Below, piece after piece: positions 42,188 to 58,699 of a stretch of DNA of 64,000 nucleotides (its first letter is position 1; each line of letters begins with the position of its first letter). Origin of the DNA: a virus (taxonomy: Duplodnaviria > Caudoviricetes); IMG/VR virus record IMGVR_UViG_3300030117_007612, positions 64,001 to 128,000 of that record. One strand, written 5' to 3'. The translations under genes were made by a program, and so were the position numbers. The notes beneath the pieces were generated by a model. It ran no database searches. It was not told the origin of the DNA and saw only the letters and a program-made list of their open reading frames with translations.

Positions 42188-42563
42188 AAAACAAATTGTT
42201 GAATTTGTAATAAAATATTGGAAGGAAATAGCAGTAGCGGCATTGGTGGTGGTGGTGATTTTAAAAATGAAGCATGATTACAAACTGATGCAAACCGCTT
42301 ACGAAACTAGAATAGAATCCACACAAGCCCAAATCGAAGGACTAAAGGAGATTCACAAAAAAGAATTGGAAGAGAAGCGACTCCTGATGGAAAGTTTCCT
42401 AGAATCAATGGCAGCAATTGAAAGCGATTACGAGGAGGCAAGAGCAGAACTTGAAGACCTCCGACGAGATAAGAAAGAAGATTATACAAAAAAGTTCAGA
42501 CAAGACAAGGAACAACTAATTAAAGATATAGAAACAACATTCGGGATTGAGTATGTTCCTTAA
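42180..42563 (+). CDS. Putative i-spanin-like protein (N-terminal TM + coiled coil)
   Basis: Start corrected to the ATG at 42180, overlapping the holin stop; WKEIAVAALVVVVILKM TM followed by a charged helical region. Confidence 0.5.
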   Translation: MIKKQIVEFVIKYWKEIAVAALVVVVILKMKHDYKLMQTAYETRIESTQAQIEGLKEIHKKELEEKRLLMESFLESMAAIESDYEEARAELEDLRRDKKEDYTKKFRQDKEQLIKDIETTFGIEYVP

Positions 42564-42975
42564 ATTACTACTAATGTTGTCACTGGCGGCAAATGCAACC
42601 GAGCCCGCTAAGTTCACTATGTTAGAGTACAAACAGCCAGCACCCTTTGAGGGTGTTTTGTTTAATGAATTTGCAATATCAACAGTGCTATCTGATTATG
42701 AAATAGCCGCCTATTCATGCGATATAAGAACTGATTATGAATTAAAAAAGTTGCAAGAAAAATATAATTTTGAATTTGAAAATCTAAAAATAGAACACAA
42801 CTCGCTGATCAATGAGTACGATTTATTCATAATGCAGAAGGATAGAGAAATAAATTCTTTAACCACTGCTCTAAAAAAAACTTCGCCCCGCTACAAATGG
42901 CTGTGGTTTGCTGGTGGGATCCTCATTGGTGGTGCAAGTTCATATGGCGTATATAAATTGTACAATGAAAAATGA
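42553..42975 (+). CDS. Secreted coiled-coil protein with C-terminal TM (spanin-like partner?)
   Basis: MFLKLLLMLSLAANA signal-peptide-like N-terminus without lipobox Cys; coiled coil; C-terminal WLWFAGGILIGGASSYGVY. Confidence 0.45.
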   Translation: MFLKLLLMLSLAANATEPAKFTMLEYKQPAPFEGVLFNEFAISTVLSDYEIAAYSCDIRTDYELKKLQEKYNFEFENLKIEHNSLINEYDLFIMQKDREINSLTTALKKTSPRYKWLWFAGGILIGGASSYGVYKLYNEK

Positions 42976-43351
42976 AAAAGATCTAAATTACATCGCCGCC
43001 GTCGAAAAAGCAATTGCAAAGAAATATGGACAAGAGACGGTACAAAATCCGAAAGGAAATTGGGACGATGAAAAGGAAAAAGAGTACCTTCAACAGATCA
43101 AGGAATTTGCGCAAAAACAACGCAAAATCGAAGAAGGCTCAGAGAAGGTAGATGTTAATGGCATTTTGGTGTCAAAAAAACTACTTAATAAAGAACCCGC
43201 AGGTTCTTGTCCTGTTTGCGGAAAGTATCTTTCTATTGCAAAAGATGACATATGCATCGCAAAATTTAATTGCTGCTTTCAGTGTTACGTAAAATGGGTC
43301 GAGGATCGAGAGGAAAGATGGGCATCTGGATGGCGACCAAATGAAGATTGA
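42965..43351 (+). CDS. Hypothetical protein with C-terminal Cys cluster (putative zinc finger)
   Basis: Start at ATG 42965; CPVC...C....CCFQC. Confidence 0.6.
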   Translation: MKNEKDLNYIAAVEKAIAKKYGQETVQNPKGNWDDEKEKEYLQQIKEFAQKQRKIEEGSEKVDVNGILVSKKLLNKEPAGSCPVCGKYLSIAKDDICIAKFNCCFQCYVKWVEDREERWASGWRPNED

Positions 43352-43649
43352 CGACATTAGAGATTTGATAAGACAAGAGCTTCTTAGTAGAACAAATCAT
43401 GACGTACGTGAAATTAAAAACGAAGTAAATGAGCCACAGCCACCCGACAATGAAGGTCGCATGGCGAAGTCGGAATTATATAAGCTTAAGAATTATGCAG
43501 AAAAGGTAAGCGACATGATAAGCGACACAGAACAACTAGAAGGGTGGGTCCAGTCAAAAATAACTAAGGCTGCTGACTACTTAAGCTCAGTTGCGCACTA
43601 TTTAGAGTATGAGAAATCAAGAGAGTTTTCTCAAGAAGGAGAAGAATAA
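43341..43649 (+). CDS. Small head-module protein with leader-helix variant
   Basis: MKIDDIRDLIRQEL N-terminus; EGRMAKSEL...EGWVQSKITKAADYLSSVAHYLEYE helical domain. Confidence 0.65.
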   Translation: MKIDDIRDLIRQELLSRTNHDVREIKNEVNEPQPPDNEGRMAKSELYKLKNYAEKVSDMISDTEQLEGWVQSKITKAADYLSSVAHYLEYEKSREFSQEGEE

Positions 43650-44206
43650 TGGCTTCAGTGATGGACGTAATCAAAGGATTATCGCAAGCCGCAGCCAATG
43701 TTTACGACGGAGCATTGGATGAAAATGGTAATTATTTAGACGTTGGACTTAGAAGAGAGGAAGGCAACCCCCTAATTGATGAGAGAGTCATTGATGGTTT
43801 TAATGTGAAATTTCATGGCAATAGAATGATACTTTGTTATCATACCGCCGTCAAATTAAAAGAAATCCACAACGGCGGCTTTGAATCAGAAATAGAAAGT
43901 CAAATAAACCAAATCGCCAAATTTTTAAAAACTGAATATCGCAAAGTTACAGGCGACAATGTTTCGCTCACTGCGGAAGGTGAAGTTGACATTTTGGTGC
44001 AAAGCGCTGGCTATCATCGCTCTTGGATTCAGGCTTACATGACTTATAACATTGGCGGCATTGAAGAAGTTCAAACTGTTGGCCAAGCTAGTGAAGATTC
44101 TATGGAGGCTTCTTATCGAAAATTTCTCGATCAAGGAGGCTTTAAAGAGAAGGAAACAAAATCTCGCAAAGCCAATGTTAAAGCAAAGGATAATAAGGAT
44201 AAATAA
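43649..44206 (+). CDS. Hypothetical protein
   Basis: 185 aa, TAATG-coupled, AGGAG SD. Confidence 0.7.
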   Translation: MASVMDVIKGLSQAAANVYDGALDENGNYLDVGLRREEGNPLIDERVIDGFNVKFHGNRMILCYHTAVKLKEIHNGGFESEIESQINQIAKFLKTEYRKVTGDNVSLTAEGEVDILVQSAGYHRSWIQAYMTYNIGGIEEVQTVGQASEDSMEASYRKFLDQGGFKEKETKSRKANVKAKDNKDK

Positions 44207-44209
44207 ATT

Positions 44210-44659
44210 ATGAAACTTACAAAAGAAATACTTAGAGAGATCATTAAGGAAGAAATAGAGAATGCCCGCGATGTGTCAGAGGGCCCTATTGGCTCCGTTG
44301 CCCCTATGTCCACTACAGGCCAACGACGCCCACGTGGCACTGCTCCAAGTCGACCAGTAGAGGAGCCGGATGCTGCAGTGGGTGGGGAAACGACCATGGA
44401 AATTGGAGCTGTCGAAAACATTAAATCGAGACTGGATCAATATATCGCCCAGCCCGGAAACCAAATGAAAGGAAGATTCAACGGTTTGCTCAATTTTCTT
44501 GATGCATATTTGGCCTCTCAAGGTTTGGGCGTTAAAGGCGATTATAGAAAAGAGCGCGGTACCGATACACAACGTAGAACTAAATCAAGACAGGTTGTGC
44601 AAAGAGGCAAAGGCTCTGCTGCTGGCATTGGATTAAAAGAAGGAGAATCCGAAGAATGA
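44210..44659 (+). CDS. IIxEE-leader family protein
   Basis: MKLTKEILREIIKEEI N-terminus. Confidence 0.7.
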   Translation: MKLTKEILREIIKEEIENARDVSEGPIGSVAPMSTTGQRRPRGTAPSRPVEEPDAAVGGETTMEIGAVENIKSRLDQYIAQPGNQMKGRFNGLLNFLDAYLASQGLGVKGDYRKERGTDTQRRTKSRQVVQRGKGSAAGIGLKEGESEE

Positions 44660-44754
44660 AAAACGTACTACACAGATTAGCAAACTTATTTAATAGCGAA
44701 CACTGCTGCTGCTGCTGCGGCTGCTGTAGTTGCGCCGGAGCATGTTGCAAATGA
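44656..44754 (+). CDS. Cys-rich microprotein (32 aa, 10 Cys), metallothionein-like
   Basis: MKNVLHRLANLFNSEHCCCCCGCCSCAGACCK*; ATGA overlaps with both neighbours; AGGAG at 44641; absent from the ORF track because of its size. Confidence 0.7.
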   Translation: MKNVLHRLANLFNSEHCCCCCGCCSCAGACCK

Positions 44755-44981
44755 AAATCACAAAAGAACAATTGCGTAAGATTATTATGGAGGAGATATC
44801 CTCTGAAGGTGTTGTTGACATGGGCGGCGAGCCAGTTGTCACTGGCCCAGAAGGTGATGCATCCGGAGAGGCCCAAGCCGGCGCTCGCCTTAAAGATGTT
44901 ATTTTATATCTCGAAGGTAATGAAAGAGACGACTTGGCCGAACCACTTCGCAAGATTCAAGAAATGCTAGAGATGCTATAA
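44751..44981 (+). CDS. IIxEE-leader family protein
   Basis: Start corrected to ATG 44751: MKITKEQLRKIIMEEI. Confidence 0.7.
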   Translation: MKITKEQLRKIIMEEISSEGVVDMGGEPVVTGPEGDASGEAQAGARLKDVILYLEGNERDDLAEPLRKIQEMLEML

Positions 44982-45009
44982 TTATCGGCAGCAGGATAGG
45001 AGACTCACA

Positions 45010-45438
45010 ATGAAGATTACTGAATCGGAAATCATAAAATATATTAAAGAAGAGATGGAGTCTGATTCGGCTTTAGCTGATGCAATTGTAAAACTGTCCA
45101 ATAAGATAGACAACCTAGACGTGAGCATTGACTATCTGGCATCGGCTCTTACTGGCGAAGATGTTTTAGATATTGGCCTCGCGCAAAAAGCTTTTGGCAG
45201 ATTCAGAGCCGCCCCAACTGTAAGTGTTGGCCGTTCTGACATGTCAGAGGGCCTCGTTACAGAAGATGTCTACGACGAGGCGAAGCAAATTGCTAAAGAT
45301 CCCAAACAGATAGATCATCTCTTCCAGCTTCTACAGGCCGTCGTTAGCGTAGCTGCTGATATGAATATGATGGGTATGCGGCTAATGAAATTAGGAGATC
45401 TTCACAAACATGCGACAGAAAAATTCAAAAACAATTAG
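45010..45438 (+). CDS. IIxEE-leader family protein
   Basis: MKITESEIIKYIKEEM; AGGAG SD. Confidence 0.7.
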   Translation: MKITESEIIKYIKEEMESDSALADAIVKLSNKIDNLDVSIDYLASALTGEDVLDIGLAQKAFGRFRAAPTVSVGRSDMSEGLVTEDVYDEAKQIAKDPKQIDHLFQLLQAVVSVAADMNMMGMRLMKLGDLHKHATEKFKNN

Positions 45439-45685
45439 TAAGTTACAACTTAGGCAGATTGTCAAAGAAGAACTTAGGGCCGTTTTGAACGAAGGGCATT
45501 ATCATGACATGGGCGGCGAAGACGAAATGTACGATGCTTTGGATCCACATGGCATTGCAAAGATGTCAGATGCACAATTAGTAGATGCTGCCTACCGTGA
45601 TGGAATTGAAGAAATTCTAGTTTTAGACAACGAAGGCGATCTTGTAAATCGTGAAGAAGTCATAATGGCACTGAAAAATGTATGA
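45410..45685 (+). CDS. IIxEE-leader family protein
   Basis: ISKLQLRQIVKEELRAVLNE near the N-terminus; stop overlaps the terminase start. Confidence 0.65.
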   Translation: MRQKNSKTISKLQLRQIVKEELRAVLNEGHYHDMGGEDEMYDALDPHGIAKMSDAQLVDAAYRDGIEEILVLDNEGDLVNREEVIMALKNV

Positions 45686-47265
45686 GCTTTCAATTAACCA
45701 AAAAAGATATGATGAAAGAGATCCTAAAGTGCGGCAAGGATCCGACATACTTTCTTAATACATATGCAAGAATTTCACACCCCCTGCACGGCACTATACC
45801 TTTCAGAACATACGATTTTCAACAAGAATTACTAGACGATTTTAATGATTATCGTTTTAATGTGATATTAAAAGCCCGCCAGTTAGGTATTTCGACCATA
45901 ACTGCGGGCTATGTTGTTTGGCTGATGTTGTTTCATCGCGATAAAAACGTTTTGGTTATGGCAACCAAGTTTGGTACCGCCGCAAACCTCGTTAAAAAAG
46001 TCAAAAGCATAATGAAAAACCTGCCTGACTTTATAAAAATTGCAGAAATTTCTGTTGACAACCGTACATCATTCGAATTATCAAATGGATCTTTTATTAA
46101 AGCTTCCTCAACTTCTGGTGATGCTGGTCGTTCTGAATCACTCTCCCTGCTTGTGCTTGATGAGGCTGCTCACATTGAGGGACTAGAAGAGTTGTGGACC
46201 GGTCTATATCCCACGCTGTCAACGGGTGGTAGGTGTATTGCACTATCAACCCCAAATGGTGTTGGAAATTGGTTTCACAAAACATACATGGAAGCTGACT
46301 CTGGGGCAAACAATTTTCACCCCACGAACTTACCATGGGATGTGCATCCAGATCGCGATCAGCAATGGTTTGAAAAAGAGACAGCAAATATGTCTAGACG
46401 ACAAATTGCTCAAGAGCTAGAGTGTAATTTTAATACTTCTGGCGAAACTGTAATTGATCCGGAAGATTTGGAAAAGCTAGCAAAAAACGTGAGAGAGCCA
46501 AAATACAAAACAGCATTTGATAGAAATTTTTGGATTTGGGAAGAGCACGATCCATCGTGCAATTATCTCATGGTTGCTGATGTTGCAAGAGGCGATGGGA
46601 CCGACTATTCTGTATTTCACATTATCAAGCTTGAAACTTTAGAGATCATAGGGGAATACCAAGGGAAACCCACACCAGACTTATTTGGCAATATGATTAA
46701 TCAAATAGGTAGAGAGTTTGGAGATTGTTTGGTTGTTGTTGAAAACAACAGTATCGGATACGCTGTATTGGAAAAATTGGTTGAGTTTGGATATCCGAAT
46801 GTTTACTATTCAGTTAAGTCAACACATGAATATATCGATCAATATCAAGCCGAAAGCCAAACAAATGCGGTGATGGGCTTTTCAACTACTTCAAAGACGC
46901 GTCCTTTAATAGTTGCCAAACTTGAAGAATTCATAAGAAATGAACTAATTACTGTGAATTCTGGTCGTTTAATAAACGAAATGAGGACTTTTATTTGGCA
47001 GTACGGAAAACCACAGGCCATGAGAGGGTACAACGATGACTTGGTTATGTCGTTGGCAATTGCATGTTGGATTAGGGACACCGCACTCCAAGTTAACCAA
47101 AGAAGCATGGATTATCAAAGGGCTTTTTTAAGCTCTATAGTCTACACAAAAACGAGTTTTGATACTACAATTAAGGGAATGGACAAAAACAAAAGCACAA
47201 AAATGACCGATAGAATAGCTGAACAAAAAGAAAGCTATGATCATTTAATGTGGCTAATAAAGTGA
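45682..47265 (+). CDS. terL: Terminase large subunit (T4 gp17-like)
   Basis: KARQLGIST Walker A, LLVLDEAAHI Walker B, STPNG motif III, nuclease VADVARG...DYS and NDDLVMSLAIA. Confidence 0.97.
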   Translation: MSFQLTKKDMMKEILKCGKDPTYFLNTYARISHPLHGTIPFRTYDFQQELLDDFNDYRFNVILKARQLGISTITAGYVVWLMLFHRDKNVLVMATKFGTAANLVKKVKSIMKNLPDFIKIAEISVDNRTSFELSNGSFIKASSTSGDAGRSESLSLLVLDEAAHIEGLEELWTGLYPTLSTGGRCIALSTPNGVGNWFHKTYMEADSGANNFHPTNLPWDVHPDRDQQWFEKETANMSRRQIAQELECNFNTSGETVIDPEDLEKLAKNVREPKYKTAFDRNFWIWEEHDPSCNYLMVADVARGDGTDYSVFHIIKLETLEIIGEYQGKPTPDLFGNMINQIGREFGDCLVVVENNSIGYAVLEKLVEFGYPNVYYSVKSTHEYIDQYQAESQTNAVMGFSTTSKTRPLIVAKLEEFIRNELITVNSGRLINEMRTFIWQYGKPQAMRGYNDDLVMSLAIACWIRDTALQVNQRSMDYQRAFLSSIVYTKTSFDTTIKGMDKNKSTKMTDRIAEQKESYDHLMWLIK

Positions 47266-47274
47266 GTTTAAAAT

Positions 47275-49236
47275 ATGGCAATTAATCCTAAAAATCCAAG
47301 AAATCCGCAATCTCAATTATTCAAGAGTTTGACAAGATTGTTTTCCGGACCAATCATTAACTATCGTAGTCAGACCGGTCGAAAGATCAGAAGACAACAC
47401 TTGGATAAATATTCGTCAAGGTTCCGTTCAGCCAGTGGGCAACAGTTTAAACGGAGTACCTACAATCCACTAGACGTCGTTGCTGTTAATGCAATTGCAA
47501 ATCAAAGAAGAAGCGAAAGATATATTGACTTCGATCAAATGGAATACATGCCAGAGATTGCCTCGTCCTTAGACATATACGCAGATGAGATGACAACACA
47601 TTCAAGTCTCCAGCCAATGTTAAAAATACACTGCACCAACGAAGAAATCAAAGCAGTGCTTGATGTTCTGTATCACAACATAATGAACATTAATTACAAT
47701 TTATTTGGATGGTGCCGAACGATGTCTAAATACGGCGACTTCTTTTTGTATTTAGATATCGACGAAAAATATGGAGTTAAGTCAACCATAGCCCTGCCCT
47801 CTCAGGAGGTCGAAAGGCTTGAGGGATTAGACGCAACAAACCCAAATTATATTCAATATCAGTGGAATAATGCCGGAATGACGTTTGAGAATTGGCAGAT
47901 ATCTCACTTTAGAATCTTAGGAAACGATAAGTATGCGCCATACGGTACATCAATTTTAGAGCCGGCCCGAAGGATTTGGCGCCAACTTACTTTAATGGAA
48001 GACGCAATGATGGCATATCGTGTCATTCGCTCACCAGAGAGAAGGGTCTTCAAGATCGATGTTGGTTCAATTCCACCACAAGATGTCGAACAGTATATGC
48101 AAAAAATTGTAACACAGATGAAGCGCCACCAAGTTGTTGATCCTGACACCGGGCGCGTTGACCTTAGATATAATCCATTAAGTATTGAGGAGGATTACTT
48201 TATTCCTGTTCGTGCAAATTCCTCATCTGATATAACAACGCTCCCGGGCGGCTCGAACGCAACAGAGATTGACGATATTAAATATTTAAGAGATAAGCTG
48301 TTTTCTGCATTAAAGGTGCCACAATCTTATTTGTCACGCGGCGAAGGCGCCGATGAAGACAAAACGACATTAGCACAAAAAGATATCAGATTCGCAAGAA
48401 CCATTCAAAGATTACAGCGCGTTGTAGTATCTGAGTTAGAAAAGATTGGAATCATTCACTTATACACATTAGGTTTTAGAGGAGACGATCTTCTCAGTTT
48501 CAAGTTGGCATTAAACAATCCATCAAAAATCGCAGAACTGCAGGAACTTGAACACTGGAGATCTAAATTTGATACGGCCGCTGCAGCAAATGAGGGTTAT
48601 TTTTCGAGACGATGGGTTGCTGAAAAACTATTCAATATGTCCGAAGAAGAATTCCTTCGCAATCAAAGAGAGTTGTTTTATGATCGCAAGCAGGATTCTG
48701 CGTTGCAAGCGATTGCCGAAGCAGGCGCCCTCGGCGCCGAAGGCGGCGGATTGGGTGGCGATTTGGGTGGTGACCTAGGAGGCCTCGAAGCCGCCGAGGG
48801 ACCCGAAGCAGATCTAGAAACCGCACCGCCCCCCGCCGATGAGGTACCCCCGGGTGACGAATCAATGCTTCTCACTTCCCCAGAGGGCCCACCCCCGGGC
48901 CATAGAGATTCGCCTACAATTTATAAATCACCAGACGGCCATGGCACCAGCAAATATCATAGAGTAAAAGTCGACCAACGTCGTCTTGGGGCTTTAAGAA
49001 GAAACATGGCTAGGGCTGCCTCTCCGGAGGTAAATACCTATAGAAAGAACAATCTAGGCGCGCCAGAATTAAGAACCCATGCTCGCGGAAGTATTTACGA
49101 GCAACAAGGCCCTATTTATAATGACAATGAAAATCGTCTGTTCGAAATCAATCACGAAGTTAGGGGCTTAATTAAGTCGCTTGAAGAAAAAGAAAACATA
49201 GTGGAGTTAAAAAAGGATGAAACCAAAGCACAATAA
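47275..49236 (+). CDS. Portal vertex protein (T4 gp20-like)
   Basis: ARRIWRQLTLMEDAMMAYRVIRSPERRVFKIDVG, EDYFIPVR, DDIKYLRDKLFSALKVPQS; directly after terL. Confidence 0.96.
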   Translation: MAINPKNPRNPQSQLFKSLTRLFSGPIINYRSQTGRKIRRQHLDKYSSRFRSASGQQFKRSTYNPLDVVAVNAIANQRRSERYIDFDQMEYMPEIASSLDIYADEMTTHSSLQPMLKIHCTNEEIKAVLDVLYHNIMNINYNLFGWCRTMSKYGDFFLYLDIDEKYGVKSTIALPSQEVERLEGLDATNPNYIQYQWNNAGMTFENWQISHFRILGNDKYAPYGTSILEPARRIWRQLTLMEDAMMAYRVIRSPERRVFKIDVGSIPPQDVEQYMQKIVTQMKRHQVVDPDTGRVDLRYNPLSIEEDYFIPVRANSSSDITTLPGGSNATEIDDIKYLRDKLFSALKVPQSYLSRGEGADEDKTTLAQKDIRFARTIQRLQRVVVSELEKIGIIHLYTLGFRGDDLLSFKLALNNPSKIAELQELEHWRSKFDTAAAANEGYFSRRWVAEKLFNMSEEEFLRNQRELFYDRKQDSALQAIAEAGALGAEGGGLGGDLGGDLGGLEAAEGPEADLETAPPPADEVPPGDESMLLTSPEGPPPGHRDSPTIYKSPDGHGTSKYHRVKVDQRRLGALRRNMARAASPEVNTYRKNNLGAPELRTHARGSIYEQQGPIYNDNENRLFEINHEVRGLIKSLEEKENIVELKKDETKAQ

Positions 49237-50038
49237 AAAAAGAAATACTGCTTTTATATACGAATCTTTAATTAAAGAAATTACTAAAAGTATTATTGAA
49301 AAAAATGATAAAAAGAAAATCAAAACACTGAAGATAGTGAAGAAATATTTTTCAACTGGGTGTATTTTGAGAGAGGAGCTGGAACTTTACAAGAGTCTTT
49401 ATGAAAACTGTGCTTTGGAGAAAGACGAATGCGAAAAAGTTCTCAAAGAAGCTAAACTGCAACATAGATTCCTAAACCCACAGGTAGTGTTTAAGCAGCA
49501 GACAAAACTAATCAACGAGATTAACAAAGAATTAAGCTCGGATGTTTATAACAATTTTATTCCAAACTACAAAACCTTGGCATCCATATCTCAGATATTT
49601 AGTGGAAAACTAAACCCCAAGTCATCGATATTGTTGGAAAAAGAAATAGTTCAATATATGTGTGATACTTCCACTATTGATGAAAAAAATCTCAAACCAA
49701 TTGACAACCTTGTATTAAAGTCGTTTATTGGCAAATTCAATGAAAAGTATTCAAATGATTTATTAAGCGAGCAAAAATTGCTTTTAAGTCATTATATATC
49801 TTCTTTCTCGGATAACGGTGTTCAATTAAAAATGTTTTTGAATGAGGAATTGAGCAGATTAAAAACTGAATTAAAGAAATCACTATCTTTGGATGAGATT
49901 TCAAGCGATTCCATAATGTGTGAAAAAATAAACACCCTAATGGAAAAACTCAATTCTTATTCTAAAGTTGCAATAGATGAGAAAATGCTACGACAGATTT
50001 TAAAAACCCAAAATTTAGTTAAGGGAATTTATGAATAA
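49217..50038 (+). CDS. Hypothetical head-module protein
   Basis: 273-aa helical protein beginning KHNKKRNTAFIYESL, overlapping the portal end. Confidence 0.7.
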   Translation: MKPKHNKKRNTAFIYESLIKEITKSIIEKNDKKKIKTLKIVKKYFSTGCILREELELYKSLYENCALEKDECEKVLKEAKLQHRFLNPQVVFKQQTKLINEINKELSSDVYNNFIPNYKTLASISQIFSGKLNPKSSILLEKEIVQYMCDTSTIDEKNLKPIDNLVLKSFIGKFNEKYSNDLLSEQKLLLSHYISSFSDNGVQLKMFLNEELSRLKTELKKSLSLDEISSDSIMCEKINTLMEKLNSYSKVAIDEKMLRQILKTQNLVKGIYE

Positions 50039-50586
50039 TGTCTGTTAGCGTATCCATTGGAAAAGAACTTAATAAGCCAAAACAAAATCTCATAAGGCTT
50101 GAATTAAATATTCGTAAAGCCCTCAATGGCGATCTTATGATTTTCGATCATGGTGATATTGATATTGTTTTAAGTCCTGATGGCAATAAAATTGTAACGT
50201 TCGCGAAGGAGAACATGTCCGATACGGTATACGGCGCCCAAAATAGATTGTTTACTTTCCTTAGAAAAAAAGGAGTGATTGTTCCTGAGTCAGTTCAAGC
50301 AGGCAATGTGTATGGCTCAATGGAAGCAGTCATATTAGAATCAGTTGATGAAAACTTAAGCTCATCAAAGATTGCATTGTTAAATATTTCAAAATTTATT
50401 GATGATGAGCGGCCTTACTTTGAATTCGTCGATAGTATTGTTGATGAGTTTGAAGATGACATGACGGATCCGGAAAATATCGATAGCACTGATTTGGGAG
50501 ATGTTGAGCACTCTGTTGAAAAGGGCTCTATTAGGAAGGGATATGTGAGAGATCCATATTCTTTAAGTTATTTATACACAATTTAA
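50038..50586 (+). CDS. Hypothetical protein
   Basis: 182 aa, TAATG-coupled. Confidence 0.7.
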   Translation: MSVSVSIGKELNKPKQNLIRLELNIRKALNGDLMIFDHGDIDIVLSPDGNKIVTFAKENMSDTVYGAQNRLFTFLRKKGVIVPESVQAGNVYGSMEAVILESVDENLSSSKIALLNISKFIDDERPYFEFVDSIVDEFEDDMTDPENIDSTDLGDVEHSVEKGSIRKGYVRDPYSLSYLYTI

Positions 50587-50587
50587 A

Positions 50588-50595
50588 CTATTTAT
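50588..50595 (+). promoter_or_regulatory. CTANTTA box (putative late promoter)
   Basis: CTATTTAT before 50623. Confidence 0.5.
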
Positions 50596-50622
50596 AAGAG
50601 AAAGGTTTTAGGAGATTAAAAA

Positions 50623-51024
50623 ATGCCAGCAAATTCATGGAGATATCCACCCGGCTTAAACAACGTTGGATCATACCAAGTATCGGGTATGCCATATATC
50701 ACAGGCTCGGCTTCATTGACTTCGGGTAGTGAACACAAGATATCGTTCCCGAAAGTAACACGTGCTGTGACGGTGATGAACCACTCAAGTAACACTCTAA
50801 GGTTTTCGTTTGCCCCTACGGGGTCTAACGGAGATAGGGTTCAAACAGGGTTTCATTATATTGAACTAGATAGTGATGAAGATTCATTTAAATTGAATGT
50901 TAAATGTAAGGAGATTTATGTATCTTCTACAGCGGGCACAGTTGAGTATCGTGTTATTGCGGAATTGACCAATATTGATACCAATTCCATGGGTCCAATA
51001 TCCGGCTCTGGACTCACTGATTAA
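50623..51024 (+). CDS. Small beta-rich virion-like protein
   Basis: GLNNVGSYQVSGMPYITGS N-terminus; AGGAG SD; upstream CTATTTAT box. Confidence 0.65.
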   Translation: MPANSWRYPPGLNNVGSYQVSGMPYITGSASLTSGSEHKISFPKVTRAVTVMNHSSNTLRFSFAPTGSNGDRVQTGFHYIELDSDEDSFKLNVKCKEIYVSSTAGTVEYRVIAELTNIDTNSMGPISGSGLTD

Positions 51025-51038
51025 GAAGGGCAATAACA

Positions 51039-52976
51039 ATGGGGTTCAAACCGGGAAAGGGCGAAATTGCTGAAACTTTTAAAATCAGCGATGGAAGCAT
51101 AAAAGTAAAAGAGCAAGCAAATGCTGAAGCAGATGAAGCTGCTTACGGACAACTTTGGGTTAAATCAAATACTCCGTGCGATTTGTTTTTCACTGACGAC
51201 AGTGGCCAAGATATTCGATTAACTAACGACGGTGCTTTAGCTAGCTCTGGTGGCACGCTATCTGGCCTAGGCAGTACTGACAATGCCGTGCTGCGTGCAA
51301 ATGGCACCGGTGGCGAAACAGCCCAAGGGTCTGCAGCAACGATTACCGATGCCGGCGTTGTGTCTGGCAGCTCATATACGGGCTTTGCAACCCGCACAGA
51401 AAAAGTTGAGGTTACATCAGTCTCTGCATCCAGTGCTCAAGCAGCAACACTTTCTGGATCAGCAGCAACACTTGATAATTTAACCCTTGGAAACACCGCT
51501 GTTACATCAGATGCCGGCGAATTAAACCTACTTGACGGCAGCAGTGCCGGCTCGATTGCAAACAGTAAAGCTGTTGTTTATAGCTCAGTTGGAATTGTAA
51601 CAGGAAGCTCTCACAAAGCTTTCTCTGCAATTGCTACAGAAGGGGAATTTGCAACATCAGTTTCCTCCTCTCTGCATTTAGGCTCTATGATTTCCGCAAG
51701 CTTAACTGTTAGCGGCGGCCAACATCAAGGGTTTAGAGGTGACTTCGCGTTACTGTCTGGGTCTTCTGTCACAGTCGATAACGTCACGATTAAGAACACC
51801 GGCAGAGTAACCGGCAGCTTTATTGATTATAATTACGCTTTCGAACCCGACGCAGTAATCACTGCGCTTGAAATTGACGTTGACAAGGTAACCGCCACTA
51901 CGTCAAGTAATTTAATAACAGGGATTAAGGTTGATCTCGACAACACAACGGCCACTAACGGTACGAACACGATGATTGGCGGAAGCTTTACTCCAACATT
52001 AACGCACGCAGCGGATGCCGGAATATCGATTGTAAAAGGTGTTGAGATTGTGGCAACTGCCGGCGGCAATGGCCAAGGCACAGCCAGAGGCATCGAGATT
52101 AAATCTTCTGGTGGAGACTATAATCAAGGAATTTATATGAACGTTGCTAACGGTGGCGTAGACCTGAAGTGTGTAAGCTCTGCGGACGCTGGTGACTTCT
52201 TTACAATCTCTTGCGGTACCAATGGTGAAACAACACTTAAAACTAATGACGACGATGATGGAAATGCCAATTTTATTTGTGAAGCCGATGGCAATTTTAA
52301 AATTGACGCTAAAAATATCATTAAACTTGATTCTGAAATTGGCGACATACACTTTTTAGATAATGGCACTACTATGCTCGCCATTGATCTTGACAGCACC
52401 TCTGGATCAATCGGCGCCGACTTAATTTTCAAAGTCGAAGATGATGCCAAGAACTTAGTATTCCAGCAGAACAATGGTTCTGAGGTCGCAAGAATTCAAC
52501 ACACTGGTTCACTGGGATCAAACTGGAGAAGTGTAGAGCCGGGCCTCAACCACAAAAGGCAGGTGTTGGAAGTTTTGGCCGACGGCGCATCAGTAACGGC
52601 CACTCTCGCAGCATCGAATAGCGGGTGCATTGTGCTAGCAATACCCGTTAATGATGATATTGTAATTGTTTTACCCGCGGGTACCCCGGGCCTGTTCTAT
52701 GATATTTGGCTGGGTGAAGACGTTCCAAGTGGCAAAACTGTTAAAATTCGAACAAACGGAACAGACAACAATGATAGCATATATGGCTACTTTACTGTGC
52801 CCGCCGGCGGCAGTGGTGACGAAGTGACTTTTGACTTTACTGGCGACGTCTTAACCCTACAGGCAAACACAGCCAAGGGTGCGTGGGTTAAAGTAACCAA
52901 CGTTGTCGGCGGATCAAATGAAATTTGGCATGCTGAAGTCATCTCACAAACTGTTGCTCTGGTTGACAACTCATAG
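51039..52976 (+). CDS. Fibre/spike-like structural protein (mosaic)
   Basis: G/S/T/A-rich; TSDAGELNLLDG motif; shares modules with 56414 and 58699. Confidence 0.6.
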   Translation: MGFKPGKGEIAETFKISDGSIKVKEQANAEADEAAYGQLWVKSNTPCDLFFTDDSGQDIRLTNDGALASSGGTLSGLGSTDNAVLRANGTGGETAQGSAATITDAGVVSGSSYTGFATRTEKVEVTSVSASSAQAATLSGSAATLDNLTLGNTAVTSDAGELNLLDGSSAGSIANSKAVVYSSVGIVTGSSHKAFSAIATEGEFATSVSSSLHLGSMISASLTVSGGQHQGFRGDFALLSGSSVTVDNVTIKNTGRVTGSFIDYNYAFEPDAVITALEIDVDKVTATTSSNLITGIKVDLDNTTATNGTNTMIGGSFTPTLTHAADAGISIVKGVEIVATAGGNGQGTARGIEIKSSGGDYNQGIYMNVANGGVDLKCVSSADAGDFFTISCGTNGETTLKTNDDDDGNANFICEADGNFKIDAKNIIKLDSEIGDIHFLDNGTTMLAIDLDSTSGSIGADLIFKVEDDAKNLVFQQNNGSEVARIQHTGSLGSNWRSVEPGLNHKRQVLEVLADGASVTATLAASNSGCIVLAIPVNDDIVIVLPAGTPGLFYDIWLGEDVPSGKTVKIRTNGTDNNDSIYGYFTVPAGGSGDEVTFDFTGDVLTLQANTAKGAWVKVTNVVGGSNEIWHAEVISQTVALVDNS

Positions 52977-52992
52977 AGGATATAAGTAGGCG

Positions 52993-53217
52993 ATGCCATA
53001 CACATCATCAGGCAAGTGCGTTTATAAAAAAAACAAAGATGGCTCTCGTGGTAAAAAAGTGGGATGTACAAAGGGTCCCGTAAAGCAGTACCTTAAGGCT
53101 TTGTATGCTAATACCGATGAGGGCTTGGATAAAACTGTAACAGAAGAAACAATGAGACTAATTATTAGAGAAGAATTACAAGAATATCTAAAGGAGATTA
53201 CAAATGACAATGGATGA
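52993..53217 (+). CDS. Small basic protein with C-terminal IIREE helix
   Basis: MPYTSSGKCVYKK...GC...; C-terminal TEETMRLIIREELQEYLKE. Confidence 0.65.
   Translation: MPYTSSGKCVYKKNKDGSRGKKVGCTKGPVKQYLKALYANTDEGLDKTVTEETMRLIIREELQEYLKEITNDNG
53158..53165 (+). promoter_or_regulatory. CTANTTA box (putative late promoter) upstream of the tubulin gene
   Basis: CTAATTAT embedded in the upstream ORF, starting 46 nt before ATG 53204. Confidence 0.35.
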
Positions 53218-54253
53218 TTTTGATTTTATAGATCACTATGGCGAAGCCGAAGAGGTAGCCAACGAAGATCAGCTACCAGATAACGAAGTTGGCTCATCGC
53301 TAAACTGTGCTATTATTGGCGTTGGTGGAGGGGGCGGCAAAATGGCAAAAGCCTTTTTAGATATCGGCTACAATAAAACATTGTTGATTAATACTACTCC
53401 AAAAGATATCCCAAGCGACGTCGATGAATCACATGTAGTGCTGATTCCGGATGCTGATGGGATCGGAAAAGATGTCAGCTTGGGTAAATCCGTACTTGAC
53501 GCCAATAGCGCCGTTGTTGAAGATGCCTTGCGGACAAAACTTGGCAAGGTTGATTGGCTTATCGTATTATCAGGCGGTGGCGGAGGTACTGGTAGTGCCA
53601 CTGCTTCATTGCATTCTGTTTTCGAAAGATACTTAAAATCTGTTCAGGCCGATGGTGACATACTTTATGTCGCATCGTGGCCAACAGCACAAGAGTGCTT
53701 GAATCCCACAATTAGCAAAAATGCACTGTCACTTATTAATGACGTATCAAAGCACTCGCACATTGTGATCGACAATGAAAGGCAGGTTAAGTTACTCAGA
53801 GGCAAGGTTGGCATGCTTGGAATGTTTCCGTTTGCCAATACGGCGTTTGCCAAGCTTTTAACGCAGGTGCTCAGATTGTCTGCAGAACAGTCACCAATCC
53901 AGTCTTTTGATTCAAAAGATCTTGCTAGGTGCTTAAGCACAGATGGTAGAATGTTTATTGGGTCTACGATGATTGCTGACCCGGCCAGTCCCAACCTTGG
54001 ATCGATGATTTTACAAAATTGCCTGAAGCGCTCTCCCTGCCCGCAGCCCTCTGGGCGCCCAAAAACAGGCACACTACTATTGGTGGTGAGCCCTGAGATG
54101 GCGTCTGATCCAGAGATCAGCAAGCACCTAGATAATGCAATTTCGTACGTCGGAGGAAGAACAGAGACACTTTTTTCCGGAGTCTATGTTAAAGAGAACG
54201 TACCGGGCTTGGTTGCTATCTTGTGCATGAATGGTTTACCCAAAGGAAATTAG
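53204..54253 (+). CDS. Tubulin/FtsZ-family GTPase (PhuZ/TubZ/CetZ-like)
   Basis: GVGGGGGK, INTT, GIGKD, signature SGGGGGTGS, IVIDNE, FPFANT and T7-loop-like SFDSKDL. Confidence 0.92.
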   Translation: MTMDDFDFIDHYGEAEEVANEDQLPDNEVGSSLNCAIIGVGGGGGKMAKAFLDIGYNKTLLINTTPKDIPSDVDESHVVLIPDADGIGKDVSLGKSVLDANSAVVEDALRTKLGKVDWLIVLSGGGGGTGSATASLHSVFERYLKSVQADGDILYVASWPTAQECLNPTISKNALSLINDVSKHSHIVIDNERQVKLLRGKVGMLGMFPFANTAFAKLLTQVLRLSAEQSPIQSFDSKDLARCLSTDGRMFIGSTMIADPASPNLGSMILQNCLKRSPCPQPSGRPKTGTLLLVVSPEMASDPEISKHLDNAISYVGGRTETLFSGVYVKENVPGLVAILCMNGLPKGN

Positions 54254-54267
54254 CGGGAGATGTTAAA

Positions 54268-54735
54268 ATGAAAATAAGCAGACACCGCCTCATGCAGATT
54301 ATTCAAGAAGAGTATGATATAATGTTGCGTTCTGAAAAAAAAGAACGACTTGACGAAAGTGTTGTTTTAGAAGCTTCCATGTCTCAAAGCGAGGTGGCTC
54401 TCGCTTCAATTGAATCGGCGATTAACGGCACCTTGCACAATTTGTTAAAAGACTTTGTAGCTGAAACGGAAATTAAAAGCATTGTCGATAGTGCAGCTGA
54501 CGCCGTTGCAGGCAGGATTGGCATTGAGCTAGAAAGCATATATAATGAAAAGCAGGCACCTCTTGAGGAGGTGGTGATGACTCAAGAGCCAATGGATATT
54601 CTAGAAGAATTAAGAAGCTTGACAAATAAGTTATCATCGATATCCGGCAACGCACAGCCGTTTGAAAATATAGCATCGGATATGATAATACAGATTAATG
54701 ATTTAGAGGAAATTTTAACAACGGAGAAGGAATGA
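54268..54735 (+). CDS. IIxEE-leader family protein
   Basis: Start corrected to ATG 54268 (GGGAG SD): MKISRHRLMQIIQEEY. Confidence 0.7.
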   Translation: MKISRHRLMQIIQEEYDIMLRSEKKERLDESVVLEASMSQSEVALASIESAINGTLHNLLKDFVAETEIKSIVDSAADAVAGRIGIELESIYNEKQAPLEEVVMTQEPMDILEELRSLTNKLSSISGNAQPFENIASDMIIQINDLEEILTTEKE

Positions 54736-55067
54736 TAGAGTTGCTTAATTTATTGTGGTTTGTACTGGCGGCGTATGGTTTAACTCAAATTCTTATTTAC
54801 GGAACAATTTTCAACAAGATAAGGCCGACTAAACAGTGGCTTAATGGATTTGGAGAATTATTCCACTGCCCCATGTGTATGGGTTTTTGGGTTGGCGTAT
54901 TTTTATGCGGCGTTAGTACGTATACGCAACTATTTACGTTTGAGACATCTTTAATAAATTATTTTATTTTAGGTTGTGTTAGTTCAGGTACATCATATAT
55001 CCTGAACGTTTTATTTTGCGATAACGGAATACAAATAGGAGTTAGAAATGGGAAAGACATGGACTAG
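54732..55067 (+). CDS. Small membrane protein with CxxC (DUF1360-like)
   Basis: Three hydrophobic segments and LFHCPMCMGFW, resembling the DUF1360 C-P-x-C-x-x-x-W motif. Confidence 0.55.
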   Translation: MIELLNLLWFVLAAYGLTQILIYGTIFNKIRPTKQWLNGFGELFHCPMCMGFWVGVFLCGVSTYTQLFTFETSLINYFILGCVSSGTSYILNVLFCDNGIQIGVRNGKDMD

Positions 55068-55113
55068 TAAATGGATGTTGCAGCCAGTTCGCCATTGCTG
55101 CAAGGGGAGTTAG
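55048..55113 (+). CDS. Putative 21-aa microprotein
   Basis: MGKTWTSKWMLQPVRHCCKGS*; AGGAG SD upstream; stop 2 nt before the protease ATG. Confidence 0.45.
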   Translation: MGKTWTSKWMLQPVRHCCKGS

Positions 55114-55115
55114 CT

Positions 55116-55721
55116 ATGGGTAAGGTACTTTTACGAGAATTTTATGAATTATGTGAAGGGGGCGTCTGTCAGGATCTTTTAACCGAGGAAGAGAAGAGGT
55201 TTGTGGCCGGCGGCGGTATGATTTTGTCTGGAATTATGCAAAAATCAGACACTGTTAATGGAAATGGAAGAATTTATCCACACAAAGTTCTTGTTCGTGA
55301 GGTTGAAAACTACTCTAAGCTTGTAAAAGAGCGACGAGCGCTCGGAGAATTAGACCACCCAGACGACTCAGTGATCAATCTTAAGAATGCATCACACCTT
55401 TGCACCAGCATATGGTGGGAGGGGCAAGATGTCATGGGCAAGGTTAGAATTTTGGACACACCATCTGGAAAAGTACTGCAAGAGCTTGTAAAATCAGGTG
55501 TTAGCCTCGGAATTTCTTCAAGAGGAATGGGTTCTGTTAAAGAAAGCCAAAATGGCACAATTGTTGAAGATGATTTTCAGTTAATTTGTTTTGATTTTGT
55601 ATCAGAACCCTCAACACCCGGCGCCTACATGATGAAAGAGTCTAAAAGCTTAAAAGAATCAAACATCTTCACAAAAGCAGATAAAATCAACAGATTAATC
55701 AACGAGGCTCTAGATGAATAA
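55116..55721 (+). CDS. Prohead core protein protease (T4 gp21-like)
   Basis: NGNGRIYP, GELDHP (catalytic His), GISSRGMGS (catalytic Ser), DFVSEPS; start corrected to ATG 55116 (GGGGAG SD). Confidence 0.96.
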   Translation: MGKVLLREFYELCEGGVCQDLLTEEEKRFVAGGGMILSGIMQKSDTVNGNGRIYPHKVLVREVENYSKLVKERRALGELDHPDDSVINLKNASHLCTSIWWEGQDVMGKVRILDTPSGKVLQELVKSGVSLGISSRGMGSVKESQNGTIVEDDFQLICFDFVSEPSTPGAYMMKESKSLKESNIFTKADKINRLINEALDE

Positions 55722-56130
55722 GGCAGATTTAAAGAAGCTTATAAAACCACTAGTGAAAGAGTGCGTACAAGAAACCCTTCTAGAAGAAGGGTTGCTTTCT
55801 GGAATTGTAAGTGAGGTGGTAAAAGGAGTTTCCTCGGCACCACCAATCGTCGAGAAGGCAAAAACAGCAAAAACAGCACCGAAACAAGAACTTGATTACA
55901 AAAGAATAGCAGAGACCAAAAAGAAGATAAATCAACACCAAAAAAGACTATTAGACGCCATCGGCTCAGACGCCTACAATGGCGTTGATTTATTTGAGGG
56001 TACAAAACCGATTTCTGATAGCGGTGCCCCCAAGCCGGGCTCAACTGATTTGGGAGAACATGACGATCCGGGTGTTCCTTTCGCCGGACCATTGGCTGAA
56101 GCTTCCAAAATGTGGGGTAAATTAGTTTAA
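55714..56130 (+). CDS. Head-module protein with leader-helix variant
   Basis: MNKADLKKLIKPLVKECVQETLLEE. Confidence 0.65.
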   Translation: MNKADLKKLIKPLVKECVQETLLEEGLLSGIVSEVVKGVSSAPPIVEKAKTAKTAPKQELDYKRIAETKKKINQHQKRLLDAIGSDAYNGVDLFEGTKPISDSGAPKPGSTDLGEHDDPGVPFAGPLAEASKMWGKLV

Positions 56131-56361
56131 ATGAGAAAAAAATGTAATGTACATTTAAAATCCAGAAGAAACGAGCCGGCAGATCGGCTTATTAGAAGGT
56201 TTATAAAAAAAGTAAAAAAAGAGAAGATTGTTGAAGAAGTTAGAGATCGAAAGCATTATAAAAAGCCATCGGTCAAAAAGAAGCAAAAGAGGATTAAAGC
56301 CCAACGCGAAAGGAAAAGACAAGAAGCCCGACGGTTAAGACGTCGGCAAAGGCGCAAATAG
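56131..56361 (+). CDS. rpsU: Phage-encoded 30S ribosomal protein bS21
   Basis: NEPADRLIRRFIKK...EEVRDRKHYKKPS matches the bS21 pattern NE..D..LRRF.....EVR.R..Y.KP; highly basic. Confidence 0.9.
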   Translation: MRKKCNVHLKSRRNEPADRLIRRFIKKVKKEKIVEEVRDRKHYKKPSVKKKQKRIKAQRERKRQEARRLRRRQRRK

Positions 56362-56413: not shown

Positions 56414-58699
56414 ATGGGAATAGGATGGGCATATATCGATTGTGATCCCGAGATTGTAACGGGATCGACCGGGCCAACTGGCTCAGTTATGTTTAAAGAT
56501 GGCCATAGATCTATTCGTGGTCAAGAAGAGCTTATGTGGATCCGCCCGGCCGCAGCTATCTCTGAGGGATTTACAATTGCATCGGGCAGTGCGTACACAA
56601 GCACACTCGACGTCGGCGCCACCTTCCACCCGCCATTCCTCCAAGTATCAGGAAACATAAGAGTTAGCGGCACAATTTTTGCAAACAGTTTCGATGTTAT
56701 AACAACAACTTTAACTGAGATACATCAGTCTGGATCAACCAGCTTTGGTCAGGGTGTTAACCGCGATAAACACAGCTTTTCAGGTTCCTTACAGGTAACA
56801 GGCGCCAGCACGCTGAATGCAATAAATTCATATGTTTTAGATAGATTTGGAATTGGCGAAAAAGAACCGAAATCTACACCTCACAGCGCAGGGTCTTCGA
56901 ATGATGCGAAGGCAGAAATATCAGTTGCTGATGGCGAGGCTTTAACGGCACTTGTAATCGATGCGAATGATGTCGATGAAGTAGCAATGCACATCGAAGC
57001 AGCACAAACAACCGCTAATGTTTTAGAAATTACAGCAGATGCAGTGACAACAGCAAATGTAATTGATGTTTCAGCAGACGCTCTAACTTCAGGCGCCGCG
57101 ATGAAAATTCAAGACAACTCAGCAAACAACACTTCCAGAGATTTAGTGCTTATTCATCAACAACACGCTAGCGCTACCTCAGCTACTGCATTGAAAGTTA
57201 TATCTGCAGGCGCCCAGACTGGAATGCTCTTGGACAAGAACTATTCGAGCGTTAATGCATCGACCGTCACTGGCTTCACTATTGACTTAGATAAAACTGG
57301 CACTTCGACTACTGCGAACACGATCTATGGGGCTACCATCGACGTGGATAACACAACAGCAACAGCCGGCGTCAATAACATGACTGGTATTCAGGTGACC
57401 CCGACCTTGACACATGCTGCAAACGCCGGCACGCCAACTGTAAAAGGCGCAGTCATTACTGCAACCGGCGGTGGCAACGGCACATCAGCCGCCACCGGCA
57501 TGGAGTTGACTGCTACTGGCGCCGATACCAACAAGGGTCTCATAATCAACTGTGCTGATGGAGGTCAGGATTTGCTAATTGTTAGCTCTGCCGACACCGC
57601 GGACTATTTTGCAATTGAAGTAACAGCCGCCGGCGCAACCACCCTTAAAACGTATGAGGATGGCTCCGATCACGGCGCAGATCTTACAATGGATATTGAT
57701 GGCGCAATTAAGATTGACGGCGACGGGGTTGAGATAGAAAATGATTCAGACTCGGGAGCAACGGCCCTTCTTATTGATAATGATGATACAGACGCGATTG
57801 CCCTTAGTATCGCCGCTGAGAATATTGATGCGAATGTTGTTGATATTGCAGCAGATGCGGTTACAACTGCTAAGGCGCTTAATATTTCAGCGGATGCGCT
57901 CACGACTGGTACTGCGTTTTATGTCGAAAGCGAATCAACGAACAACAGCACTAGAAATGTAGCAGCAGTTGTGCAAAACGCCGGCGCTGCCATTAACGCC
58001 ACTGCGCTACTTGTACAATCTGATAGTAACGGCGGCGTTGCTGGCATTAAAATTGATAGAAATGCAAACGGTACTGCAGCTGTTGATGCTGTAACCGGTC
58101 TTCAAATCGATCTAGATCAGACTGGAGAGATCACAAGCGCCACCGGTGTTGTGGTTGGAATCCAAACAGATATCGAAACCAACGTCGCCGGCGACGGCAC
58201 GTTAAATTCCTATGGTCACAGAATTGTGATGACCGGCGATGCTGATGGAACACATACAAACACTGGCCTTTCAATTAATTTAGGTCAGGCCGACATCAAC
58301 ACTCATATTGAGTTACTTTCTTCCGCCGATACCGGCGATAAATGCACGATTTCAACAGGTCTCGCCGGCGCAACAACAATTTTAACGGTTGATGATGATG
58401 GTGCGGACGCCCATCTTACAATAAATCCCGATGGCAATTTACTTCTTAATGCTGCTGGTGACATTATAGTCGATCCAACTGGCAATGATATTCTTCCTCT
58501 TAACGATAATGACATTAGCTTGGGTTCTGCTTCGAATCGATGGGCGCACATTTATACAACACTTATTACAACTGGTGACCTTCGTTTAAATAATGATAGA
58601 GGCGATTGGTTGATTGTCGAGGAAGCAGACTATTTGAGTATAAGGAATCAAAAAACAGGAAAGCTGTACAAATTCGTATTAGAGGAGATTAAAGAGTAA
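56414..58699 (+). CDS. Fibre-like structural protein
   Basis: A/T/G/D-rich beta repeats; C-terminal RWAHIYT..ITTGDLRLNN.RGDW...TGKLYKFVLEEI resembles the C-terminal domain of T4-like cyanophage fibres. Confidence 0.7.
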   Translation: MGIGWAYIDCDPEIVTGSTGPTGSVMFKDGHRSIRGQEELMWIRPAAAISEGFTIASGSAYTSTLDVGATFHPPFLQVSGNIRVSGTIFANSFDVITTTLTEIHQSGSTSFGQGVNRDKHSFSGSLQVTGASTLNAINSYVLDRFGIGEKEPKSTPHSAGSSNDAKAEISVADGEALTALVIDANDVDEVAMHIEAAQTTANVLEITADAVTTANVIDVSADALTSGAAMKIQDNSANNTSRDLVLIHQQHASATSATALKVISAGAQTGMLLDKNYSSVNASTVTGFTIDLDKTGTSTTANTIYGATIDVDNTTATAGVNNMTGIQVTPTLTHAANAGTPTVKGAVITATGGGNGTSAATGMELTATGADTNKGLIINCADGGQDLLIVSSADTADYFAIEVTAAGATTLKTYEDGSDHGADLTMDIDGAIKIDGDGVEIENDSDSGATALLIDNDDTDAIALSIAAENIDANVVDIAADAVTTAKALNISADALTTGTAFYVESESTNNSTRNVAAVVQNAGAAINATALLVQSDSNGGVAGIKIDRNANGTAAVDAVTGLQIDLDQTGEITSATGVVVGIQTDIETNVAGDGTLNSYGHRIVMTGDADGTHTNTGLSINLGQADINTHIELLSSADTGDKCTISTGLAGATTILTVDDDGADAHLTINPDGNLLLNAAGDIIVDPTGNDILPLNDNDISLGSASNRWAHIYTTLITTGDLRLNNDRGDWLIVEEADYLSIRNQKTGKLYKFVLEEIKE

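Follow-up and report, generated by a model that had tools for sequence, protein, structure and literature searches.

The capsid-targeting sequence (CTS) of phage T4 was reportedly described by Mullaney and Black in 1996. It is carried by the internal proteins IPI, IPII, IPIII and Alt as a short Met1 peptide starting with MK in front of unrelated small cargo, and it was proved with green fluorescent protein (GFP) and nuclease fusions (PMC9026906, PMC3012670, PMC9958956). The first 10 residues of IPIII suffice for prohead loading; residues 4 and 7 act in targeting, residues 8 and 10 (P3 and P1 of the cut site) act in processing, and the protease gp21 cuts after L/I-x-E (PMC9026906). The T-even internal proteins are diverse apart from the tag (PMC3012670). 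The T4 protein gp24 loses the decapeptide MAKINELLRE, and gp23 is cut after residue 65, FLTE↓A, the arrow marking the cut (PMC9958956). In the giant phages phiKZ, 201phi2-1 and SPN3US, many head-internal proteins are cut after Glu by diverged gp21 homologues, at S/A-x-E, and large protein sets are delivered with the DNA (PMC9026906, PMC5694885, PMC7411985). The present analysis concerns a stretch of 64,000 nucleotides (the window), bases 64001-128000 of the 203,368-bp virus record IMGVR_UViG_3300030117_007612. The source is an uncultured marine T4-like phage of about 203 kb, and nearly all genes are on the + strand. Unrelated small proteins of its head module begin with a shared leader peptide, which is probably a lineage-specific counterpart of the T4 capsid-targeting propeptide, as judged from sequence signatures and the T4 analogy.

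At the sequence level, four marks of the T4 type are found together here: an S77 protease (a gp21 homologue), a tag at Met1, an (L/I)-x-E ending like the gp21 cut motif, and unrelated cargo. In both systems the tag starts with MK and the cargo genes are hypervariable among related phages. The T4 CTS has 10 residues, whereas the leader has 14-16 and shows a near-invariant Glu at P1', the residue after the putative cut. Only 3-4 proteins carry the tag in T4, compared with 5-7 class-1 and 6 class-2 bearers per genome and at least 115 cargo clusters here; class 1 (the leader of the window) and class 2 are two interchangeable tag classes, and many bearers lie within the head operon. The T4 system was established by fusion experiments, whereas the one described here is known from sequence alone. 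The kind of system, capsid targeting of internal proteins, is already known from T4. An unrelated and longer tag with an invariant EE, its two classes, the far larger scale and the placement in the head operon appear to be new. The giant phages are similar in their gp21-type protease, but they have no single N-terminal tag common to unrelated proteins, they use another cut motif, and their packaging was shown by virion proteomics (PMC9026906, PMC5694885, PMC7411985). Full-text literature searches found no paper with the string QIIKEE, and for "capsid targeting" with "cyanophage" only a general review of T4 head assembly (PMC9026906).

The preliminary description of this DNA had listed eight strings with the leader motif, and all eight were recovered in place on the + strand. 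Genes are named here by their start in the window (Table 1). Six of the strings lie at a start codon (43341, 44210, 44751, 45010, 54268, and 55714, the last from residue 5); the ATG at 44751 falls inside the open reading frame (ORF) 44730-44981. The other two run from residue 7 onward in ORF 45410 and over residues 54-63, near the C-terminus, of ORF 52993. A hidden Markov model (HMM) of the motif, as had been suggested, recovers the window copies and the leaders of relatives. As a guard against circularity, an HMM was also built from 45 leaders of related contigs only, with zero window sequences. Searched against 243 proteins, it matched 45410, 44751, 44210 and 54268 (in descending order of the scores in Table 1) with independent E-values of 1e-5 to 2e-4; the next protein reached 6.1 bits. 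The leader match in the window exceeds chance. A six-frame search of the whole 203 kb with the leader profile gave five copies, all within window 44210-54268, and nothing else.

The other copies were assessed by family. The 43341 leader is below HMM significance. Its cargo domain follows canonical leaders in three relatives (L166, L126 and L083), with which its N-terminus aligns once one residue is deleted. The 45010 protein alone scores only 2.1 bits; its family members P0015 and P0017 bear a canonical leader, and M1, T4, I12, E14 and E15 are invariant in the family alignment (A2). By family homology, both are taken as diverged leaders. The copy in 52993 is not significant alone; the C-terminal end of its family is class-1-like in some members (VIREELKKYLQE) and class-2-like in another (VIMEGWRGYLSE). 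The count of seven to eight copies proposed earlier is thus reduced to five robust copies and two by homology, with that of 52993 weak or doubtful. Orthologues of 55714 start with MKKSDLKQLIKPLVKE and have S(D/Q)LKQ(L/I)IK in common with the leader. Intermediate between the leader and the 55714-type N-terminus is a short leader variant, MKKSELKQIIKEE, and the ORF at the 55714 position of one relative (L076) has a near-canonical leader.

Related loci were collected from IMG/VR: 80 were found via the protease (70-85% identity, including complete contigs of ~200 kb, 1 Mb in total) and 79 further loci only by the core LKQIIKEE, giving 159. The consensus in these loci is MKITKSQLKQIIKEE(I/L), nearly always from the start codon. 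In the protease-selected loci, all profile hits of at least 12 bits are on the coding strand (93/93), and 104 of the 111 hits of at least 10 bits (~94%) begin exactly at ATG or GTG. In the independent sample taken by the LKQIIKEE DNA pattern, which matched at least 120 stretches, ATG or GTG lies exactly 7 codons upstream in 82 of 109 (75%). E14 is invariant (95/95 leaders), and position 12 is I or V in ~98%. E15 is invariant in an alignment of 50 leaders (A1) and kept in 91 of 95 in the larger set. Conservation ends after residue 16. Read as an amphipathic helix, the consensus has a hydrophobic stripe (M1, L8, I11, I12, L16) and a lysine stripe (K2, K5, K9, K13). Third codon positions are nearly free (e.g. 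five Leu codons are used at L8) while the amino acids are kept, which indicates that selection acts on the leader peptide and not on the DNA. Upstream of the leaders there is no common promoter, and nothing is shared except the Shine-Dalgarno site. A tblastn search of 50,697 phage records with the 20-residue leader, a query too short for the purpose, gave no match.

The proteins behind the leader had been described as otherwise unrelated, and this is borne out. The window cargoes fall into separate BLAST clusters, and searches of the window leader proteins in Pfam and PHROG found no family. Among relatives, 169 distinct bearers form 115 cargo clusters (BLASTP 1e-3), or 86 at a lax limit of 0.1; the mean leader identity between different cargo clusters is 67%. 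Among the 61 longest cargoes, 60 have no Pfam family, and the sole exception is a pentapeptide-repeat protein (Pentapeptide 1.3e-33; L069 9438-9971), located in the slot just before the protease. Pentapeptide-repeat proteins are of the DNA-mimic type. The cargo is mostly acidic, with an isoelectric point (pI) below 5.5 in 70% versus 37% of the small proteins of the same genome. Cargo domains are shuffled between families: the 45410 cargo is fused behind a 45010-type domain in a metagenome protein (P0013), two relatives (L040, L046) join the 45010-type domain to the 43341 cargo, and the 43341 cargo follows the leader directly in others. One 352-residue ORF (L085 6766-7824, relative G001) carries two complete leaders, a canonical one at Met1 and another, including Met, at residue 228; it is either an in-frame fusion of two leader genes or has an internal start. 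The 45010 protein belongs to a cluster of 26 members. The AlphaFold2 model of its family is all-helical with a mean predicted local distance difference test (pLDDT) of 53, too weak for fold searches; the leader is a helix over residues 5-18, at low confidence. The homologue search with 45010 returned only unnamed marine metagenome proteins, and ESM Atlas look-ups of 54268 and 55714 only viral hypothetical clusters.

These data bear on the explanation that the leader has no address function, the bearers being fast-diverging paralogues with initial codons retained for efficient translation, or the gene starts being DNA recombination sites. Tandem genes in hypervariable slots, with fusions and domain swaps, would fit this explanation, and the AAA-rich starts favour initiation. 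However, the peptide is conserved as far as residue 16 with third codon positions nearly free, translation effects do not extend to codon 16, and the cargoes, of 40 to 400 residues, have no detectable similarity. This explanation is hardly credible. The codon analysis also rejects a recombination cassette conserved in its nucleotide sequence.

The window encodes a prohead protease of the T4 gp21 family. Its profile match is 114.5 bits against a curated cut-off of 27, with Portal_T4 upstream and Gp23 downstream. Its identity to T4 gp21 is 33% (E 6e-30), and the GEL(D/N)HP and SSRG(M/L)GS blocks are kept. The true start is probably at 55116 rather than at the first ATG (55071), because relatives have stops upstream and begin with M-x-K-x-LLRE; the N-terminus would be MGKVLLRE↓F. 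In the leader, I12-x-E14 fits the T4 L/I-x-E rule, with I12 as P3 and E14 as P1. In the T4 tag, an Asp at position 10 prevents processing. The specificity of the protease is probably conserved between T4 and this clade, since the capsid site aligns with the gp23 site and matches gp24, and similar endings are found on the protease, 49217 and 55714. In BLASTP, LRE↓V of the capsid protein aligns residue for residue with the LTE↓A cut site of T4 gp23. Across 18 relatives, the capsid protein has an invariant ELLRE, identical to the end of the gp24 decapeptide, followed by variable residues. Near their N-termini, the neighbours 49217 and 55714 have AL(I/V)(R/K)E and PLVKE. The hydrophobic-hydrophobic-basic-Glu form of the gp24 decapeptide end is thus seen at the capsid ELLRE↓x, the protease M-x-K-x-LLRE↓, the 49217 AL(I/V)(R/K)E↓ and the leader IIKE↓ sites. 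Unlike the leader, the propeptides of T4 gp24, gp23 (65 residues) and gp21 each belong to one essential structural protein and do not travel as a tag between many cargoes. The 49217 gene is carried by 75 of the 80 loci, with the N-terminal motif kept among orthologues. The 55714 family was found in 63 of the 80, at a position that matches that of gp22 in T4.

A second leader class, MKL(L/I)xENW(R/N)x(F/Y)(L/I)xE, heads six adjacent ORFs at genome 14000-19481 (L207 1000-6481), 50,000 to 44,500 bases before the window start. One class-2 cargo includes a DnaJ domain (5.9e-16); the ORF after the six (19472-19945) has a NUDIX domain (3.4e-13) and only a degenerate leader. Class 2 is unrelated in sequence to class 1, with the same 14-residue length and hydrophobic positions 1, 4/5, 8, 11 and 12. 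Across relatives, 34 of 35 copies end in (L/I/V)12-x-E14, the search pattern having also permitted D or N at the final Glu position. Class 2 also occurs in head-module slots of relatives, and 25 of the 35 copies stand directly behind MK. Two unrelated tags with one geometry and a protease-type ending would be the prediction of an address followed by cleavage, and the rival explanations do not predict them.

The leader might instead be an uncleaved helix for partner binding or oligomerisation, unrelated to the capsid, which tethers effectors to one phage or host hub. The polymerase, the ribosome, a chaperone, the membrane or the phage tubulin could be such a hub. The amphipathic stripes of the consensus would suit this role, as such helices bind grooves or membranes, and E15 is invariant while not needed for cleavage. 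Some leader genes lie outside the head module, and the tubulin gene often adjoins leader slots. A binding helix has no need for Met1, yet 104/111 and 82/109 leaders are found there, nor for a fixed end at residue 14-16. It does not predict two leader classes with the same length and (L/I/V)-x-E ending, and conservation peaks at positions 12 and 14, the P3 and P1 of the protease. A binding helix is therefore considered rather unlikely. The tubulin/FtsZ-like GTPase of the window also adjoins leader slots; its gene lies upstream of g42153 in relatives and has moved here between the portal region and the protease.

The gene order in relatives is g42153, g42547, g42908, g43649, TerL, portal, g49217, g50038, DUF1360, protease, g55714, S21 and g50623. 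Leader genes occupy four variable slots in this conserved head module: the place before g42153 (often after tubulin) and the g42908/g43649, g43649/TerL and DUF1360/protease intervals. In about 20 relatives, leader ORFs lie between DUF1360 and the protease, and 54268 lies here upstream of both. At least one leader gene is present in 28 of the 32 loci that span the module. Head-module genes were found in the fetched piece of 52 of the 79 pattern-only loci. An S77 protease was found in 7 of 23 other pattern-found records, including the only complete one, the rest being fragments of large genomes; it was found in every leader-only record with a detectable head region. The clustering around head genes claimed in the preliminary description holds for the four slots but is not strict, the relatives G002 and G004 being exceptions. 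The T4 late-promoter consensus TATAAATA occurs 5 times versus 4.2 expected, and zero times before leader genes. Sigma-70-like sites and terminators are at chance level, and the promoter searches gave no signal tying leader genes to late expression. The tight packing with TerL and the overlapping or abutting ORFs at 44210-45685 suggest that the leader genes are co-transcribed with TerL.

The gene neighbourhood also bears on the explanation that the leader is recognised by another enzyme, as a Clp degradation tag or as a leader like those of ribosomally synthesized and post-translationally modified peptides (RiPPs), for the timing or modification of small proteins. The phage encodes a ClpP homologue (CLP_protease 3.9e-28) outside the window, at 109722-110399 in window coordinates (L206 1722-2399), and IIKE is contained in its 55-residue N-terminal extension. 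Class 2 (M-K-L-L-F-x5-F) also resembles a loosely defined N-terminal ClpX motif, a lead only. However, ClpP lies ~65 kb away from the leader genes, the conserved neighbours of the leader slots are head genes with no modifying enzyme among them, and the (L/I/V)-x-E ending would be left unexplained. Recognition by such an enzyme is quite improbable. A radical S-adenosylmethionine (SAM) maturase was rejected by distance: the class-1 genes lie 57 kb and the class-2 genes 32 kb away from the only PF04055 match, at genome 51283 in a glycan cluster, and no such gene is among the conserved neighbours. A GroEL-like gene follows ClpP, at 112611.

If it is a capsid address, the leader, an amphipathic helix of ~14 residues at the N-terminus, would attach unrelated small proteins to the prohead core during assembly. 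Cleavage after I12-x-E14 by the gp21-type S77 protease (55116-55721) would then remove the leader, and the freed cargo would stay inside the capsid and leave with the DNA at infection. Some acidic cargoes might instead be expelled like scaffold. For docking and its partner, as for cleavage, packaging and ejection, we argue by analogy with T4 and from the sequence signatures. The modular leader of the preliminary description is strongly supported by the Met1 position, the peptide-level selection, the many unrelated cargoes, the I-x-E ending and the presence of a gp21-family protease. The protein proposed there as the scaffold (63162, P0002) is in keeping with this role by position and composition, but is a candidate only; family searches with P0002 returned none. 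A predicted complex of P0002, the 55714 protein and the 44751 leader protein had a score of 0.00, with poorly folded chains, and speaks neither for nor against docking.

Several observations weigh against the capsid-address reading. The residue at P1' is the near-invariant E15, and known T4 sites have Ala or Ser after the cut. The candidate sites in the capsid protein, the protease and 49217 have a variable P1' residue, unlike the leader. E15 may serve another purpose, because a Glu at P1' differs from these known and candidate sites. The 43341 leader is without the P1 Glu. The copy in 52993 is C-terminal, and cleavage would leave the cargo attached to the helix. The enrichment of [ILVM][ILV][KR]E in head proteins (12/30 sites) gives weak support and is partly circular, because the leaders themselves are counted. 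There is no sequence similarity between the leader and the T4 tag MKTYQEFIAE. In G002, 3-4 leader genes lie 50 kb from the head module, next to a large replication-type gene; in G004, a single leader gene is 100 kb from the head genes. The distant genes are a weak objection, since T4 internal-protein genes are also dispersed. The clade has no cultured member, and its leader system is known here from sequences only.

Tentatively, and with a good deal of doubt, the two classes might form a clade-wide capsid-loading code, in which a protein with either of two interchangeable 14-residue tags is built in together with the core, then trimmed and injected. The tags may be mimics of the N-terminus of the 55714-family core protein, whose gene lies directly after the protease. 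If so, more than 100 orphan cargo families would be a large unexplored collection of injected effectors for take-over and anti-defence, most of them acidic and one of them a pentapeptide-repeat DNA mimic. If the leader is a capsid address, proteins that abundant uncultured ocean phages inject with their DNA could be recognised by an N-terminal MKITKSQLKQIIKEE or MKLLxENWRxFLxE; in T4, such proteins include anti-restriction factors. Such an address would also supply new tags with which foreign proteins could be loaded into phage heads. The localisation of proteins to the T4 scaffolding core is still called mysterious (PMC9958956), and the two tag classes, with hundreds of variants and conserved candidate partners, would form a comparative data set for it.

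Table 1. Leader genes and head-module features, in window coordinates.
Feature	Position	Strand	Match or remark
102-residue protein, diverged leader MKIDDIRDLIRQEL, E14 replaced by Q	43341..43649	+	
149-residue leader protein MKLTKEILREIIKEEI, orphan cargo	44210..44659	+	17.1 bits
76-residue leader protein MKITKEQLRKIIMEEI, acidic orphan cargo, pI 4.05	44751..44981	+	17.7 bits
142-residue leader protein MKITESEIIKYIKEEM, conserved SIDYLASALTGED domain	45010..45438	+	largest cargo family
91-residue protein, leader at residues 7-22 KTISKLQLRQIVKEEL	45410..45685	+	19.3 bits
Large terminase TerL, T4 type	45682..47265	+	Terminase_6N 2.9e-8; phrog_2 5.9e-52
Portal, T4 gp20 family	47275..49236	+	Portal_T4 9.5e-79
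Conserved head-module protein; its N-terminus up to residue 21, with AL(I/V)(R/K)E at the end, is a candidate propeptide	49217..50038	+	
74-residue Cys/Lys-rich protein, C-terminal leader-like helix MRLIIREEL	52993..53217	+	only 3.3 bits
Tubulin/FtsZ-like GTPase	53204..54253	+	PF00091 exactly at gathering score 33.0 bits; phrog PhuZ 5e-4
155-residue leader protein MKISRHRLMQIIQEEY, cargo pI 4.21	54268..54735	+	15.3 bits; slot just upstream of DUF1360 and protease
DUF1360 membrane protein	54732-55067		
Prohead protease, T4 gp21 family (S77)	55071..55721	+	Peptidase_S77 (PF03420) 5.7e-33
Conserved 138-residue protein, leader-related N-terminus ending LVKE at residue 16	55714..56130	+	directly after protease
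P0002, 362 residues, very acidic, helical	63162-64250 (window ends 64000)	+	directly upstream of capsid gene
Major capsid protein P0001, Gp23 family	64276-66033, beyond window		1.3e-73

Several other genes accompany the head module. Three conserved small genes (window 42153-43351, +) precede the leader slots. The first product has a transmembrane (TM) segment together with a coiled coil, the second a signal peptide and, at the C-terminus, a TM segment; the third is zinc-finger-like and rich in Cys. The g43649 product (185 residues), conserved and encoded directly before TerL in many relatives, is a small terminase candidate. No family was found for the trio or for g43649. A bS21 homologue (Ribosomal_S21 1.6e-12) is encoded in the head module at window 56131-56361 (+), directly after 55714, and is present in 50 of the 80 loci. 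Two ORFs between the protease region and the scaffold-like gene, 56414-58699 and 58699-63054 (+), encode Thr/Ala/Gly-rich proteins of 761 and 1451 residues. They are without family, have internal repeats like those of 51039-52976, and most relatives are without them at that place.

A different common N-terminus was observed in a cultured relative, Flavobacterium phage vB_FspM_immuto_2-6A (L205). In L205 9023-10323 and 16633-16860, the form M(A/E)(D)NF(N/D)L.(S/K)FL.ENKL...(L/I)LKE is found on two ORFs before TerL, and a similar N-terminus is found on the ORF after the protease. It appears to be a leader specific to that lineage and placed in the same slots. Lineage-specific tags may be general in marine T4-like phages, because this phage has its own shared leader.

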